DNA from: a virus
IMG/VR virus record: IMGVR_UViG_3300014325_000010
Location: 1-33,129 of that record
DNA length: 33,129 bases
Strand: one strand, 5' to 3'
In this document: positions 18,313 to 23,687 of the stretch, in pieces
How positions within the stretch are numbered: position 1 is the stretch's first letter
Layout of the letters: each line of letters begins with the position of its first letter
Translations under genes and position numbers: made by a program
Notes under the pieces: generated by a model
What the model was told of the DNA's origin: nothing
Seen by the model: the letters and a program-made list of their open reading frames with translations, nothing else
Databases searched by the model: none

Positions 18313-18518
18313 AACTTAGAGATCAAATGGATGCACTACGAATTCATCATATTGTGGTACATCGACTAGAACTCGAAAATGGAACACTGGGTATCGATAT
18401 TAGTTATTTTTTCGATGACAATCCTAAACTTTCTTATTCAGTCCGCGAATTTAATAGGAACAGTAAAATACGAAGGGCTCTCGAATTAATCGAAACGCAC
18501 CTTCGAAAGGACGTATAA
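18309..18518 (+). CDS. Hypothetical small protein
   Basis: ORF, ATGA overlaps on both sides. Confidence 0.4.
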   Translation: MKLRDQMDALRIHHIVVHRLELENGTLGIDISYFFDDNPKLSYSVREFNRNSKIRRALELIETHLRKDV

Positions 18519-19471
18519 TGGCTAAGACGACTGTTGGCGCGGTAGTAGGTCGGTTCCAAGTGCCCGAACTTACACAAGGACATCGCGATCTACTCAACGC
18601 GGTCATGGAACGATCAGATCGTTTAGTCATCCTTTTGGGTGTGTCGCCACTCGACGGAAAAGTAAAAGAAAATCCACTGACATTTGATCAACGAACTTCG
18701 TTGTTCCGTGATTACGGACACGCAACAATTCTTCCCGTGTTTGACCAGCCAAATGACAAACTGTGGTCTACCGCTCTTGATAGACTACTCAACGATTTGT
18801 TTCTTGGTTCGGAAATCACATTATTTGGTGGGCGTGATTCCTTTACAACTTCGTACATGGGCCAATTTGGTACGGAGATACTATCATTTCATGCGAGTGC
18901 AACGGTGCAAGGCACAAAGATGAGAAACGCGATTAAGGAATCTCGCGAACCGGAATTTCTTCGAGGGCAAATCTACAGTCTGGTAAACCAATACCCAAAA
19001 ACTTTTCCAACCGTTGATATTGTCGTAATCAAAGACACAGAGTTACTACTTATTCAACGAGCCGATACAAGCGAATGGACCCTACCAGGTGGCTTTGTAG
19101 ATCCAACCGATAGATCGCTTGAACTTGCTGCCAAACGCGAATTATATGAAGAACTTGGTATCTTGAGCGACGAAAATATGGTGTATGTTGGTTCGACGGT
19201 AATCAATGATTGGCGTTATCGATCATGTCGTGATAAAATCATGACGTCGTTGTTCGTTATTGAACCAACAATTGAATCTATTACTCCAAATCCGCTCGAA
19301 GTACAAGATTACAAATGGGTGAAATTGCTTGTGGCATTAGAGGTAATTGCGCCACACCATATACCCTTGATTCGTATGCTTATCACTAGGCACCTGAAAC
19401 TATTTGTCAGGGAAAACGAACTTGACCAAACTGGGAAGATTACTTCGGACACACGTATTCTTCGAGGGTAA
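18518..19471 (+). CDS. nadM: Bifunctional NMN adenylyltransferase (NadM-type) / Nudix hydrolase
   Basis: N-terminal GRFQVPELTQGH carries the (H/T)xGH nucleotidyltransferase motif. C-terminal Nudix box LPGGFVDPTDRSLELAAKRELYEELGI. Confidence 0.75.
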   Translation: MAKTTVGAVVGRFQVPELTQGHRDLLNAVMERSDRLVILLGVSPLDGKVKENPLTFDQRTSLFRDYGHATILPVFDQPNDKLWSTALDRLLNDLFLGSEITLFGGRDSFTTSYMGQFGTEILSFHASATVQGTKMRNAIKESREPEFLRGQIYSLVNQYPKTFPTVDIVVIKDTELLLIQRADTSEWTLPGGFVDPTDRSLELAAKRELYEELGILSDENMVYVGSTVINDWRYRSCRDKIMTSLFVIEPTIESITPNPLEVQDYKWVKLLVALEVIAPHHIPLIRMLITRHLKLFVRENELDQTGKITSDTRILRG

Positions 19472-20901
19472 TGATGCGAAATATTGCGAAACGAACTGAC
19501 GGATACAAACCAAGTCACTGGCTTTTCATGGAGCCAGGTATTCAAGACACATGGGATTACCTTGAAAGTCGTGGCGGCGTTTACGGTGACATGACCGTTT
19601 TCGGCTTGCAAGGTCACGCCTACAAATATCTGTGTGGTCGAGTGATTACACCCGAACAGGTGGAGCAAGCCAATCGATTCTATGCTCGTTACTATGGGAT
19701 GACGGGTGTGTTCAATTACCACGGGTGGATGCGAATAGCTACGACTCTCGAAGGTCGACTTCCTCTCGAATTGTACGCATTACCAGAAGGTCTGCAAGTA
19801 CCAGTACGAACGCCATTGTATCAATACCACGTCACTGACCCCGATTCATGGTGGTTACCAGGCTATTCCGAACCGTTGATGTTCAAACCGTGGTATCCAT
19901 CTACGACTTCAACCATCAGTCAGCACTGTAAGCGGGTGTTGTGGGACGGTCTCAAAGAAAGTGGTACTGAGGCTGACATCGCCTGGAAATTGCATGACTT
20001 CGGTTATCGAGGAGTGTCTTCAGAAGAATCTGCCGAAATTGGTGGAGCGGCGCATCTTGTTCACTTCAAAGGAACCGACACCATACCCGCTATCGACTAC
20101 ATTAACGAATTCTATGGTGATGGGCAAGTGGACGCCTATGGCGACCCAACCTATATGCCAGGATTTAGCGTTCGAGCAACCGAACACAGCGTGATGACTC
20201 ACCGTGGTCGGAAATTGGAGCTCGAAGTCGTTCGACGAATTTTGCAAGTTTGTCCTACCGGAATCATCGCTATGGTAGGCGATTCGTACGACATCTTTAA
20301 TTTTGCCGATCAAATTTTGGGCGTTGATCTGCACGCCGAAGTAGTTGGACGTGATGGACTCGTGGTTGTCAGACCAGATTCTGGTGACCCAGTTCCAACC
20401 ATGATGAAACTACTTTGGATTCTAGGCGAACGGTTTGGTTGGACAATGAATTCCAAGAAATTCAAAGTTCTCAACCATGTCCGTACGCTCCAAGGCGACA
20501 AGAACAATTACGACGCCATTTACAAGATGGTTCGAGCAGTTATCGGTGCTGGCTGGAGTCTCGATAACATTGCTACTTTCGGTATGGGTGGTGGATTACT
20601 CCAGGATTCTGATCGGGACACACAGAAAATGAAAATCGCATTGTCGTCACTCACGGACAAAGATGGTAATTGGCGCGACGTGAACAAAGACCCAATCACC
20701 GATCCTGGTAAGTTCAGCCGTCCTGGGCGATTCGCGGTGGTCTTCGAAGATGGCAGAATCGTTACAAAAGCACTGAAGCAGGGTGAGCCTCGACCGGCTG
20801 GTGATATGTTCGAACTGGTATATCGTAACGGCGAATGGCTCAAGCATACGACATTTGAAACAATTCGTGAACGGGCTGACCGTTGGATGAAGTTAGCATA
20901 A
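19471..20901 (+). CDS. nadV: Nicotinamide phosphoribosyltransferase (Nampt/NadV)
   Basis: 476 aa. ...DFGYRGVSS...GGAAHLVHFKGTDT...RATEHSVMT...GDSYDI... is typical of the Nampt family. ATGA overlap with nadM. Confidence 0.85.
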   Translation: MMRNIAKRTDGYKPSHWLFMEPGIQDTWDYLESRGGVYGDMTVFGLQGHAYKYLCGRVITPEQVEQANRFYARYYGMTGVFNYHGWMRIATTLEGRLPLELYALPEGLQVPVRTPLYQYHVTDPDSWWLPGYSEPLMFKPWYPSTTSTISQHCKRVLWDGLKESGTEADIAWKLHDFGYRGVSSEESAEIGGAAHLVHFKGTDTIPAIDYINEFYGDGQVDAYGDPTYMPGFSVRATEHSVMTHRGRKLELEVVRRILQVCPTGIIAMVGDSYDIFNFADQILGVDLHAEVVGRDGLVVVRPDSGDPVPTMMKLLWILGERFGWTMNSKKFKVLNHVRTLQGDKNNYDAIYKMVRAVIGAGWSLDNIATFGMGGGLLQDSDRDTQKMKIALSSLTDKDGNWRDVNKDPITDPGKFSRPGRFAVVFEDGRIVTKALKQGEPRPAGDMFELVYRNGEWLKHTTFETIRERADRWMKLA

Positions 20902-21071
20902 TGGCACTCATAGTTGTCTTCCATAACGACAGTACTGGAACAGATGACGTTGGAAATTACAACGTCTCTGTCTATGTTAATCAACGACTGATTGATACAG
21001 CGCGAGTCGAAGGGCACAAGCGAAAGGACGATTGGCGGAAATTGATCGTCAAACTTGCCGAGAAAGAATAA
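20883..21071 (+). CDS. Hypothetical small protein. In the same frame as the next HNH ORF, separated by TAA.
   Basis: ORF. Confidence 0.3.
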   Translation: MDEVSIMALIVVFHNDSTGTDDVGNYNVSVYVNQRLIDTARVEGHKRKDDWRKLIVKLAEKE

Positions 21072-21470
21072 ATGGTTCCGTACGAGGGCGGAAAGGTGTA
21101 TGGGCCTTACATAAGGCTGGAAGATGATAGAAGTCATGTTGTCATTGTCTTTCCAGATAAGACACGACGAACTGTGTCTTACCCAAAATACCTTATGGAA
21201 ATCAAATTAGGTCAATATCTAGAACGAAATGAAGAAGTACACCATAAAGATGAAGATGTAACAAATGAAGATCCAGATAATTTGGTAGTAATAAATGGAA
21301 CAACTCACAGAAAGTTACACAACCCTGTAGATCCGCCAACCATCTTAATTTGTGCTTGGTGTGGAATAGAATTTGAAGTTGATAAGAATCATTACCGTAA
21401 TCGACAAAGAAATCATATAAGTTCAGGACCATTTTGTTCAAAACAATGTAGTGGATTCGTTAATAATTAA
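21072..21470 (+). CDS. HNH endonuclease
   Basis: ...EEVHHKDEDVTNEDPDNLVVINGTTHRKLHN... plus a C-terminal Cys4 (CAWCG...CSKQC). Confidence 0.65.
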   Translation: MVPYEGGKVYGPYIRLEDDRSHVVIVFPDKTRRTVSYPKYLMEIKLGQYLERNEEVHHKDEDVTNEDPDNLVVINGTTHRKLHNPVDPPTILICAWCGIEFEVDKNHYRNRQRNHISSGPFCSKQCSGFVNN

Positions 21471-21473
21471 ATT

Positions 21474-21560
21474 GCCGGGGTGGCGTAATTGGCAGCCGCA
21501 CTGGGCTTAAGACTCAGTGACCTACGGGTCGTGCGGGTTCGACTCCCGCTCCCGGCACCA
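21474..21560 (+). tRNA. tRNA-Leu (anticodon UAA), type II with a long variable arm. CCA is encoded.
   Basis: Folded by eye. Acceptor GCCGGGG/TCCCGGC. Anticodon stem CTGGG/CTCAG with loop CTTAAGA. Variable-arm stem GACC/GGTC. T-arm GCGGG-TTCGACT-CCCGC. 87 nt. Confidence 0.8.
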
Positions 21561-21642
21561 TTTATAAAGGAGGTGACTCATGAAGTAGTGTCCACTTCGT
21601 ATGTCCTCTGAATCACTGTGAGTTTATTTCTGGAGAATTGAA

Positions 21643-22107
21643 ATGACAAGTGCAGCCGCCAATATGACACGTATCAACAGCAAGCAGTTCAACGTCGCCT
21701 TCGTGTTCTGCCCGTCGCCGATTACCATCGACAAGCGGAAGGATTGGGCCGGCGCGGATGGCCAACAAGACGAGAGCAACCTGCAGAAAGCGCCAAACGG
21801 CGCGTTCCTCAAGATGAGCTCGCCGACAGAGGTCTCGCACCTTGTGCAGCCCAACGCGGACCGAACCGCGCCCGAAGGTTGGGTACCCGGTGACGGCCCT
21901 GGGTTATTCACAAAGAGCCCGATTTGGGTGACTGGCGTCGAAATCCCAGCAGGAACACCGACTGAGGTCTACACGCTGGATGGAGGGATAACGTACACCT
22001 TCGACGAACCGGCCATGTTGTGCTACAACGGCGATGAGAACGGCCCCAACTACAACGACGGTTGGGTCCAAACGATGAAAAATCTCCGAAAGAACTACCA
22101 CATCTAG
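21643..22107 (+). CDS. Hypothetical protein (154 aa) in a GC-rich island, likely horizontally acquired
   Basis: GGAG RBS. GC3-rich codon usage (AGC, TTC, AAC, GTC, GCC, CCG) unlike the rest of the window. No recognised domain. Confidence 0.55.
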   Translation: MTSAAANMTRINSKQFNVAFVFCPSPITIDKRKDWAGADGQQDESNLQKAPNGAFLKMSSPTEVSHLVQPNADRTAPEGWVPGDGPGLFTKSPIWVTGVEIPAGTPTEVYTLDGGITYTFDEPAMLCYNGDENGPNYNDGWVQTMKNLRKNYHI

Positions 22108-22123
22108 GACGATAGGAGCGATT

Positions 22124-22204
22124 ATGAAGTACCTCGTAGCATGCAGTTTCATTGCGGCGATGATCGTTGCGGGCTTCGTACTCGCATACCTCGAAGTCAG
22201 GTAG
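22124..22204 (+). CDS. Possible 26-aa hydrophobic mini-peptide (MKYLVACSFIAAMIVAGFVLAYLEVR)
   Basis: GGAG upstream, GC-rich, single TM-like segment. Could be spurious. Confidence 0.2.
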   Translation: MKYLVACSFIAAMIVAGFVLAYLEVR

Positions 22205-22210
22205 CGTCTA

Positions 22211-22242
22211 GGACCCTGGTCGCGGGCGGCGCGACCGGGTCC
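22211..22242 (+). promoter_or_regulatory. GC-rich 13-bp hairpin with one bulge
   Basis: GGACCCTGGTCGCG ggcg GCGCGACCGGGTCC. More GC-rich palindromic segments follow at 22329-22379 (CCTTTAGCC...GGCTAAAGG). Confidence 0.4.
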
Positions 22243-22395
22243 AACCGTTAGACCGGCGATTCCGGCCGATAGGTTTATTTACGGGCCACCAGTCGAGGCT
22301 GGGGCTGGATAAAAGTTTAAGGTAATACTAGCGCCTTTAGCCTAGATAGACCGCCTTGGCGGGCGCTGGTGGCTAAAGGACTCCAAATCGTGAAA

Positions 22396-22545
22396 ATGTC
22401 GTTTCAGGACAGAGCTTGTATTAAATGTGGGACTATCGTTCGTTCTTATCATGGTTTTGCTTTCTGTAAACGATGCAATCGTTGGGTGTGTGTTTCTAGA
22501 CGAGCTTTACGAAAACAAAAACAGTCATCAACAAAGATAAAATAA
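22396..22545 (+). CDS. Zinc-ribbon protein (49 aa)
   Basis: MSFQDRACIKCGTIVRSYHGFAFCKRCNRWVC... TAATG overlap with the next ORF. Confidence 0.35.
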   Translation: MSFQDRACIKCGTIVRSYHGFAFCKRCNRWVCVSRRALRKQKQSSTKIK

Positions 22546-22997
22546 TGACTCCACTACCCTGGACAAATGCAAAAACTGCCAATGGAATGCTTAATGCGGT
22601 CATGCGAGTAATCAAAGAAGATTACCGACGTATAAGTATGAATTTTGTTTGTGTTCGAATTGGATCAATACCTCGTTATAGAAATCTAATTAACACTCTT
22701 ATATCACCACCATGTGGTGCAGTTGGTTGCGTAGCTGGTTGGGTTCTTATACTGACAAATCGCACAAGTGAGAATGAATATAATTTAGGAGACACATCCA
22801 CAGCAGGCCGAATTTTAGGACTTAGTTATGAACAGGAGCGAGAGTTGTTTTATCCTCAATACTTAGTTGAAGCTCGTAGTGAGTTCCAAACAGCGAGACA
22901 TGCCAATGAAGTGATCCGTCATATCCGAGCTTTTCAAAACAAATACCGAAAGCAACTTCTCGCTACAAAATTGGATAATTATGCCTCGCAACGTTAA
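22545..22997 (+). CDS. Hypothetical protein
   Basis: ORF. Confidence 0.45.
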   Translation: MTPLPWTNAKTANGMLNAVMRVIKEDYRRISMNFVCVRIGSIPRYRNLINTLISPPCGAVGCVAGWVLILTNRTSENEYNLGDTSTAGRILGLSYEQERELFYPQYLVEARSEFQTARHANEVIRHIRAFQNKYRKQLLATKLDNYASQR

Positions 22998-23472
22998 ACA
23001 AAGACCTGGCTGGTCAGAAGAGAGACGCGCAAAAGTCGCCGAAACTTGGCGACTACGTAAAGAACAGCAACATGCTCTCGATGAAGTAAGCAAAATCAAT
23101 ACTAAACGCCAAGGTAGAATCTGTGTATACTGCGGCGAAAAGTATGATATACGCGAGCACGTACCAATTCTTCGAGCACGTATCACACTACCAGTCAGTG
23201 GACCTAAAATCAAATTCGTAATAGTTCCGGCCTGTAAAGAATGTCATCGCCACCTCGAATATGATGAGAGTTTGACTGTCACACAACGACGAGCTATCAT
23301 CAAAAATATTCTTCGCGACAAATACACAGCTTTCCTTGATTGGAAAGAATACACACCAAATAATTACGAACTTCGACAAACACTCAGCAGACATCACCTC
23401 GAATTACTCGATGGAATGAACCGCGCAAAAACAATTATACTACGACGTCTTAAATACAAGGAAGGCGAATGA
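22981..23472 (+). CDS. HNH endonuclease
   Basis: CVYCGEKYDIREHVPI...VPACKECHRHLE. Confidence 0.55.
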   Translation: MPRNVKQRPGWSEERRAKVAETWRLRKEQQHALDEVSKINTKRQGRICVYCGEKYDIREHVPILRARITLPVSGPKIKFVIVPACKECHRHLEYDESLTVTQRRAIIKNILRDKYTAFLDWKEYTPNNYELRQTLSRHHLELLDGMNRAKTIILRRLKYKEGE

Positions 23473-23687
23473 AAGCCAACTGTCAAGTGACATTTGAATT
23501 TAATGTGAGCCCACCAAGAACTTGGATGGGCGAAATCGAGGGATCATCTCCTTCTACATTAGCTCGAAAAGCTATGTCGCATGCAAACAAGAAATTGCGT
23601 CCACGAAAGTGGATTTCATTTACTTGTGTTATCTTAGACCGCACTATGGGTGACAGTAATGGAACGAATGAAAGTAAAGATGTTTGA
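23469..23687 (+). CDS. Hypothetical small protein
   Basis: ORF, ATGA overlap. Confidence 0.3.
   Translation: MKANCQVTFEFNVSPPRTWMGEIEGSSPSTLARKAMSHANKKLRPRKWISFTCVILDRTMGDSNGTNESKDV

Follow-up and report, generated by a model that had tools for sequence, protein, structure and literature searches.

Depletion of nicotinamide adenine dinucleotide (NAD+) is a common anti-phage strategy of bacteria, and the phage pathways NARP1, NARP2 and NARP3 are a recent discovery. In the relevant passages of two sources, NARP2 is the combination of Nampt/NadV and Nmnat/NatV, as in Vibrio phage KVP40, and rebuilds NAD+ from nicotinamide and phosphoribosyl pyrophosphate (PRPP), overcoming NAD-depleting defences (bioRxiv 10.1101/2024.02.11.579819; PMC9503650). 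The amidohydrolase steps of the pyridine nucleotide cycle are those of PncA, a nicotinamidase, and PncC, which deamidates nicotinamide mononucleotide (NMN) (PMC3855486). Here we describe a GC-rich island at positions 21643–22390 of a 33,129-nucleotide (nt) stretch of viral DNA (IMG/VR record IMGVR_UViG_3300014325_000010, positions 1 to 33,129; the whole stretch is referred to as the window), which contains a 154-amino-acid (aa) open reading frame (ORF) designated ORFX. The island had been pointed out in a preliminary description of this DNA, and that observation was checked over the entire window. To judge from gene neighbourhoods and sequence comparisons, ORFX is very probably tied functionally to NAD salvage, and we favour, with rather less assurance, the view that the island is an old horizontally acquired cassette carrying a NAD-salvage accessory gene and not a recent tRNA-targeted insertion.

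ORFX and its NAD-salvage neighbourhoods

The phage encodes a NAD module of two adjacent genes, and ORFX is located 0.75 kb downstream of these on the same strand:

18518..19471, plus strand: NatV-like gene, the first of the module, encoding an NMN adenylyltransferase-like N-terminus joined to a Nudix domain
19471..20901, plus strand: NAMPT/NadV, nicotinamide phosphoribosyltransferase (NAMPT_N, 3e-21; NAPRTase, 7e-41; PHROG 448, 2e-122)
21643..22107, plus strand: ORFX, 154 aa, all-beta in the predicted model, rich in G and C at third codon positions (GC3), of an uncharacterised family linked to NAD-salvage genes

The first of these genes matches Pfam NUDIX (1.2e-18), PHROG 395 cytidyltransferase (1.3e-10) and also Nudix, with a weak match to CTP_transf_like (E 0.028), and its top NCBIfam matches are bifunctional NMNAT/Nudix models, all of them far below cutoff; the NAMPT product scores 434.6 against NCBIfam NF006629, for which the cutoff is 405. 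ORFX itself belongs to a small, rare and undescribed family of proteins of the Candidate Phyla Radiation (CPR, or Patescibacteria) and of phages. A search of 5.8 billion proteins recovered 62 homologues of about 142 aa with 39–74% identity, and a profile search of 1.84 billion representatives recovered only 65 clusters at 50% identity, essentially all single-domain; the protein is thus no orphan. No family in Pfam-A, NCBIfam or PHROGs matches ORFX, a precomputed Pfam domain is present in 0 of the 62 homologues, a profile search of the PDB gave nothing significant, and the N-terminally extended members of the family contain no known domain. The invariant positions include D30, Q48, G53, K57, H66, P70, W80, K91 and D113, and the family motifs are ITIDK, NGAFLK and SHLVQPN. 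An AlphaFold2 model built from the family alignment is all-beta with a pLDDT (predicted local distance difference test) of 92.7, and Foldseek searches with this model found no significant neighbour in either the PDB (best E above 1) or BFVD (best E 1e-3, to an unnamed phage protein of 1242 aa). The cellular members derive from Saccharibacteria, Peribacteria and Absconditabacterales assemblies, and one is on a Kaiserbacteria-like contig whose DnaB is 75–84% identical to proteins named Kaiserbacteria, Pacebacteria or Parcubacteria.

The indication of a role comes from the genes that accompany the family. Among 22 assessable ORFX loci, ten contain NAD-salvage genes (NAMPT, PncB, NadD, NadE, Prs, PnuC or NrtR) within about 3 kb, and these ten span at least seven distinct lineages or architectures, including the following:

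P0004 contig: NadD, PncB, NadE, ORFX; next, read from the opposite strand, genes for an AAA_28 (NadR-like) kinase and PnuC, with a methyltransferase and NrtR beyond them
L016: NadD, PncB, Prs, NadE, ORFX
L006 and the related L024: NAMPT and NadE with ORFX
L008: Prs, NAMPT, ORFX, histidine phosphatase
L009: ORFX and NAMPT in this order, the stop of the one overlapping the start of the other
L029: ORFX directly after NAMPT
L015: NadE about 2 kb upstream of ORFX
L027: NrtR after ORFX

Not all of the loci conform to this pattern. The remaining 12 of the 22 have no NAD gene nearby, and ORFX and NAMPT of the window do not adjoin, with a 56–62-aa ORF, an HNH gene and a tRNA gene between them; both facts weigh against a NAD role. 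The former would agree with an ORFX that is unrelated to NAD and simply shares with the NAD genes a location in regions of phage and small CPR genomes that are accessory or rich in tRNA genes, acting for example as a defence or anti-defence binder or as an RNA- or tRNA-related factor. Four phage-like loci (the window, L010, L028 and L037) with ORFX among tRNA genes would fit such a gene, as would the RNA ligases that are also present in L008. We nevertheless consider this quite improbable, since the association recurs across architectures and lineages, including the NAMPT start/stop overlap and the nadD-pncB-nadE operons with NrtR and PnuC, and since 10 of 22 loci are observed, whereas chance alone, by a rough and uncalculated estimate, would place about 0.05 NAD genes beside each locus. 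A link to NAD salvage therefore remains the favoured interpretation, and the suggestion in the preliminary description that the gene could be an anti-defence gene agrees with it in a general way, as the family sits with NAD-salvage genes.

We propose that ORFX would act as an uncharacterised accessory of nicotinamide/nicotinate salvage or NAD reconstitution, and that the phage would use it to keep or rebuild NAD+ during infection. Our leading guess at its activity, which we nonetheless hold to be rather unlikely to be correct, is an enzyme for a step that the adjoining genes do not provide, namely an amidohydrolase-type step converting NMN or nicotinamide to the acid form, such that ORFX would be an analogue of NMN deamidase or nicotinamidase and would join the amidated and deamidated routes to NAD. 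This guess is made because ORFX recurs with NAMPT or PncB together with NadE or NadD, and the ORFX neighbourhoods, as annotated, show no pncA- or pncC-type gene and neither an isochorismatase nor a CinA gene. Several points count against it: the phage already has a putative NMN adenylyltransferase (the NatV-like gene), and an NMN-deamidase step is not obviously needed; the lack of any match to the predicted fold weakens the case for an amidohydrolase; and the near-invariant Cys residue of the family is missing in a few members. Alternatively, ORFX might be a partner or activator of the NAPRTase-family phosphoribosyltransferases (NAMPT or PncB). At its broadest, the proposal is that ORFX founds a new fold and family supplying an unassigned pyridine-nucleotide salvage step in CPR bacteria, that phages captured it repeatedly, adding a third member to the NAD+ reconstitution with which they counter immunity that depletes NAD, and that in this lineage it travels with a new class of structured RNA of about 185 nt; we regard this combination as possible, although doubtful. 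In any case, a conserved, structurally unmatched protein found with NAMPT in phages and with nadD-pncB-nadE and NrtR in CPR bacteria provides a concrete and testable candidate for a missing salvage component, and if the proposal is correct it bears on how NAD is maintained in reduced CPR genomes.

We note some additional genes in these neighbourhoods. His_Phos_1 genes are found beside NAMPT and ORFX in two phage-like contigs (L008 6456-7052 and L029 456-1169), L008 also contains two RNA-ligase genes, and an extended NAD/RNA-repair module may include these His_Phos_1 and RNA-ligase genes as well. Between NAMPT and NadE/ORFX, L006 (4261-4809) and L024 (3960-4502), two related cellular contigs, share a conserved gene that encodes about 180 aa, lacks any Pfam domain and is another uncharacterised candidate in the NAD neighbourhood.

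Composition, age and origin of the island

The island and the genes on either side of it are arranged as follows:

21072..21470, plus strand: free-standing HNH endonuclease gene (PHROG 14913, 9e-24; Pfam HNH_3, 7.8e-5; GC 0.361)
21474-21560, plus strand: tRNA-Leu(UAA) (ARAGORN; Rfam tRNA, 49.1 bits), the 3' end of which is also found at the start of the sister contig L002
21561..21642, plus strand: AT-rich leader of 82 nt, read from the sequence (GC 0.378)
22124..22204, plus strand: mini-ORF from the ORF list, 26 aa, hydrophobic, MKYLVACSFIAAMIVAGFVLAYLEVR, with AGGAG 5 nt upstream (GC3 0.69)
22206..22390, plus strand: GC-rich tail of 185 nt, non-coding, 66% identical to L002
22396..22545, plus strand: small double-CxxC zinc-ribbon protein from the ORF list, with weak zinc-finger matches

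ARAGORN and Rfam agree on the position of the tRNA gene that had been reported here, and the HNH gene, which is of the homing type, stops 3 nt short of it; the HNH and tRNA genes together split the NatV–NAMPT pair from ORFX. The abrupt rise in GC content is real, with a value of 0.57 for 21643–22390 against 0.414 for the whole window, although this is about 57% and not the 60% reported previously. Neither does the switch occur immediately 3' of the tRNA (GC 0.667) as had been thought, because the AT-rich leader intervenes and the rise begins at the ORFX start codon. Within the island the GC content is 0.572 in ORFX, about 0.52 (0.519) in the mini-ORF and 0.589 in the tail, and it is 0.361 and 0.367, respectively, in the HNH gene upstream and the zinc-ribbon gene downstream, the latter being the first AT-rich gene past the island. 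The 748-nt windows with the highest GC content (maximum 0.568) fall within 20900-23100, the region bearing the island, and the best value outside this region is 0.496 (mean 0.415, standard deviation 0.037). The unusual codon usage of ORFX is likewise confirmed: its GC3 is 0.734, compared with a mean of 0.327 (standard deviation 0.081, maximum 0.515; z about 5) for the 42 other non-overlapping ORFs of at least 80 aa in the window, and the bias involves C-ending and G-ending codons alike and is even along the gene. The segment is thus compositionally foreign, as the preliminary description had it. The NAMPT gene (19471-20901) is also compositionally raised, with a GC content of 0.486 and a GC3 of 0.47, among the top four in the window, and it may be that the NAD module in its entirety came from a foreign, more GC-rich source and that its parts are at differing stages of amelioration. 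Further endonuclease-like genes (DUF559) are present upstream on the same contig (L001 297-599 and 2857-3267).

The age of the island is indicated by a diverged relative of the phage. The ORFX protein is present on two assemblies of the same phage, and contigs L002 and L003, which come from other sequencing runs, carry a copy with 74% protein identity. L002 begins inside the same tRNA-Leu gene and continues with the leader, ORFX, the GC-rich tail and a homologue of the window gene 22981-23472; the tail leads directly into this homologue, and the window genes 22396-22545 and 22545-22997 are lacking. Between the window and L002 copies of ORFX the proportion of synonymous differences (pS) is 0.66, the synonymous divergence (dS) is about 1.6, such that synonymous sites are near saturation, and the ratio of nonsynonymous to synonymous divergence (dN/dS) is 0.10; ORFX is under purifying selection. 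Because L002 has the identical layout with a dS of about 1.6, the acquisition appears to be old and to predate the deep split of the two phages. The earlier suggestion that it was recent cannot be maintained, as L002 shares the segment, its location and its GC bias, a finding that the preliminary description had itself named as one that would tell against it. An assembly chimera, the other possibility raised there, is ruled out because both junctions are found again, in independent assemblies as well as in a diverged genome that was sequenced in other runs. L002 also contains an IS605-type TnpB gene (1273-2370) that is lacking in the window and a perfect 16-bp hairpin inserted directly past the tRNA gene, while the window zinc-ribbon gene and the 150-aa gene beyond it (22396-22997) are those that L002 lacks.

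Insertion at the 3' end of the tRNA, which had also been proposed, finds no support. There is no integrase or recombinase domain among the ORFs of 21000-23500 (HNH, ORFX, mini-ORF, zinc-ribbon and two others of unknown function), no att-like direct repeat of the tRNA 3' end within 21000-23000, and the AT-rich leader separates the tRNA from the island. An empty site was not encountered, the only relative found (L002/L003) holding the island at the same site. The collections searched contain no other relatives of the phage, with the downstream gene p163 recovering only the window protein and its L002 homologue, and when 50,697 phage records were searched by blastn and tblastn for the island, ORFX and the mini-peptide, only tRNA matches came back. 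The tRNA differs at each of the four phage-like loci with ORFX among tRNA genes, which is consistent with accessory-gene hot spots rather than site-specific integration. In the three loci other than the window (L028 3328-3662, L037 4351-5551 and L010 6784-6867) the ORFX homologue is likewise placed among clustered tRNA genes (Met/Asn, Tyr/Asp and Leu-tag), and in L028 it begins about 95 nt past a tRNA.

A horizontal origin of the segment, as envisaged in the preliminary description, is plausible, in that the closest relatives of ORFX are CPR cellular genes of a GC3-rich clade, one member of which (L004) is Kaiserbacteria/Parcubacteria-like; the window and L002 copies are both within this clade in the protein tree. 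We suggest that the ancestor of both known phages may have acquired ORFX from a GC-rich, Parcubacteria-like CPR donor, and that its GC3 signal would be either only partly decayed or actively maintained, the GC3 of both phage copies still being 0.66-0.75. There is thus a hint of gene exchange between this phage lineage and CPR bacteria. However, the high GC3 is not peculiar to the phages. In AT-rich CPR genomes the GC3 of ORFX exceeds the background in L016 (5001-5447; 0.67 versus 0.31), L018 (5001-5429; 0.71 versus 0.32) and L012 (6001-6432; 0.83 versus 0.50), and a similar excess confined to the coding sequence is seen in L011, L013, L020 and L023; the excess over the neighbouring genes ranges from 0.15 to 0.39, and the flanks are AT-rich. 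About half of the homologues match their own genomic background (L006, L008, L009, L010, L014, L015 and L024). A two-lineage model with an ancestral GC3 of 0.85-0.95 and a GC-to-AT loss of 24-28% per lineage fits the third-position classes (log likelihood -102.4).

Two results speak against a simple history of transfer followed by amelioration: several cellular genomes repeat the excess that is restricted to the coding sequence, which a single transfer does not explain, and a model in which GC3 is saturated but maintained at 0.70 fits almost equally well (log likelihood -103.8). Both agree with a GC richness that arose from selection on the ORFX mRNA or its codons in whatever genome it resides, e.g. 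for mRNA stability, expression or the avoidance of AU-rich cleavage sites, the tail being GC-rich for the same structural reason. The retention of GC3 by both phage copies despite a pS of 0.66 agrees with such selection, but the half of the family at genomic background does not, codons are chosen as in a genome that is GC-rich throughout (GCG, CCG and TCG are used), which goes beyond a simple preference for C-ending codons, and the GC3-rich members cluster in the protein tree, as expected from shared ancestry or transfer. We think selection in place of a foreign origin an unlikely source of the signal, and an old acquisition remains our preferred account of the island. Neither a single transfer nor simple codon optimisation accounts for the recurring excess; repeated transfer from GC-rich Parcubacteria and codon-level selection are both possible, and this family-wide excess confined to coding sequences is an unexplained evolutionary signal in its own right.

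Leader, mini-ORF and non-coding tail

The leader contains a strong Shine-Dalgarno sequence, AAGGAGGTGA, at 21567-21576, followed by a two-codon ORF, ATG-AAG-TAG (21580-21588), which is located 55 nt before the ORFX start; the ORFX ribosome-binding site, GGAG, comes after it. Two blocks of the leader are kept in L002, the Shine-Dalgarno sequence with ATGAAGTAGTGT, and TTTCTGGAGAAT..AAATGAC, with the rest of the leader diverged, and the Shine-Dalgarno sequence and two-codon ORF may form a 'start-stop' regulatory element. The counterpart of this segment in L002 is at 83-108.

The hydrophobic mini-ORF reported downstream of ORFX is present; its best 18-residue hydropathy is 2.61, and it may encode a real small membrane peptide. 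It lies within a 76-nt stretch that is lacking in L002, where the tail element starts 7 nt past the ORFX stop, and we conclude that it is a lineage-specific extra. The peptide has no tblastn match in phages and no other locus has a hydrophobic mini-ORF directly 3' of ORFX, the nearest hydrophobic ORFs (in L011 and L013) starting 60-190 nt past the ORFX stop and being unrelated. Both hairpins described in the tail are real, i.e. the 13-bp hairpin at 22211-22242 (P1) and the pairing of CCTTTAGCC with GGCTAAAGG, although the latter is at 22334-22379 and does not start at 22329.

These features had been read together as a recent island at a tRNA 3' end, with a gene that could be a moron or a toxin and a peptide/RNA pair laid out like a type I toxin-antitoxin system, the tail supplying an antisense or small RNA. 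The sharp GC and GC3 anomaly, the tRNA 82 nt upstream, the hydrophobic mini-ORF with its Shine-Dalgarno sequence and the strong hairpins of the tail are all as such a reading would have them. It is largely refuted, however, and we give it hardly any credence: the locus has neither an integrase nor an att-like repeat, the sister phage has the same segment at near-saturating synonymous divergence and keeps the tail without the mini-ORF, no such peptide directly follows the other homologues, no promoter match was found on the minus strand of the tail, the consensus fold is better on the sense strand, and ORFX is in a housekeeping-looking family within NAD operons.

The conservation of the tail suggests a different role. 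Its 66% identity to L002, which includes a 26-nt block (22279-22304; TTACGGGCCACCAGTCGAGGCTGGGG) that is identical in the two phages, compares with differences at 66-73% of the synonymous sites of the flanking genes, and hairpin P1 is kept in L002 with a shifted bulge and a changed loop. The consensus fold of the plus strand has an energy of -46.8 kcal/mol and 52 pairs, 16 of them changed on both sides, and that of the minus strand -37.8 kcal/mol and 35 pairs, seven of them changed on both sides; the number of double-sided changes drops from 16 to 0-1 once the partners are slid. In the predicted fold the 3' helix (22334-22379) covers an AAAGG Shine-Dalgarno-like sequence of the next gene. On this evidence we give roughly even weight to the tail being a lineage-specific, functional sense-strand structured RNA, which could act either as a stabiliser in the 3' untranslated region (3'UTR) or as a leader whose 3' helix covers the AAAGG ribosome-binding site of the next gene.

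Two considerations weigh against a functional RNA. First, the structure rests on, and was derived from, two sequences; secondly, the single-sequence folds have weak z-scores (-1.3 to -3.2), which give the plus strand no advantage. The tail could instead be a remnant of the donor's DNA that came in with ORFX, for example a decayed terminator or a piece of intergenic sequence, which seems conserved through its GC richness and the kinship of the phages. Such an origin would be in keeping with those z-scores, with the ordinary hairpin-plus-U terminators in which the cellular ORFX homologues end, and with the restriction of the tail to two sequences: neither the rest of the window nor 28 homologue loci yielded another copy to a covariance model (R1), and scans of IMG/VR and the Joint Genome Institute (JGI) metagenomes for the 26-nt core, both exact and loop-degenerate, gave no real match. 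It does not readily explain why a non-coding segment retains 66% identity and a perfect 26-nt block beside genes that differ at 66-73% of synonymous sites, why P1 is kept with a shifted bulge and changed loop, or why 16 pairs changed on both sides still pair when 0-1 do so on sliding. We therefore consider leftover DNA a possible but less probable explanation, and retain a structured RNA as the working interpretation of the tail.

Other candidates for the tail were set aside. It is not a protein-coding remnant, as it has no shared frame with L002 and its mismatches show no three-base periodicity. An Rfam cmscan of 20800-23200 at E ≤ 10 found only the tRNA and three chance-level matches outside the tail, a YrlA-like match (E 0.34) being driven by the tRNA itself, and 25 pattern matches to the 26-nt core were rejected by the covariance model. 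The tail has no U-tract terminator.

Comparison with known systems

The locus resembles type I toxin-antitoxin systems in that a 26-aa hydrophobic ORF adjoins a hairpin-rich non-coding stretch, but here conservation does not extend to the peptide, the RNA element lies clear of the peptide ORF and is retained where that ORF is lacking, and the sense strand is favoured with no antisense promoter found in the tail. Similarly, tRNA-adjacent islands and phage morons share with it a compositionally deviant accessory gene beside a tRNA, in a region with homing-endonuclease genes. They differ in that this locus has no integrase and no duplicated tRNA 3' end, its boundary is away from the tRNA, the segment is common to a diverged relative, and the ORFX genes of other phages are beside different tRNAs. 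Structured 3'UTRs, 3'UTR-derived small RNAs and cis-regulatory leaders offer a parallel for the tail, which is without an Rfam match at E ≤ 10 and without a U-tract terminator, but is a conserved multi-helix element that extends to the next gene's ribosome-binding site, a site partly paired in the predicted fold.

For ORFX, the likeness to PncA and PncC is one of functional analogy only: its place in the operons is one at which the route would be completed by a step of the pncA or pncC type, but it has no sequence or fold similarity to either, with Pfam matching neither and the model being all-beta where theirs is alpha/beta. NrtR-associated NAD-salvage operons (nadD-pncB-nadE, pnuC-nadR, prs and nadV) do not include ORFX among their known members, and the organisms here are CPR bacteria; nevertheless, cellular ORFX genes are at the 3' end of nadD-pncB-(prs)-nadE clusters, and PnuC, a NadR-like kinase and NrtR are encoded near them. 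NARP2 is described as a two-enzyme pathway, no third ORFX-like component being mentioned in the passages concerned (bioRxiv 10.1101/2024.02.11.579819; PMC9503650), and ORFX, having no known domain, would be a putative contributor only. The resemblance to NARP2 is that the window has a NAMPT gene and, adjacent to it, a putative NMNAT-Nudix gene (18518-20901) with ORFX downstream on the same strand, and ORFX abuts NAMPT in other phage contigs (L008, L009 and L029).

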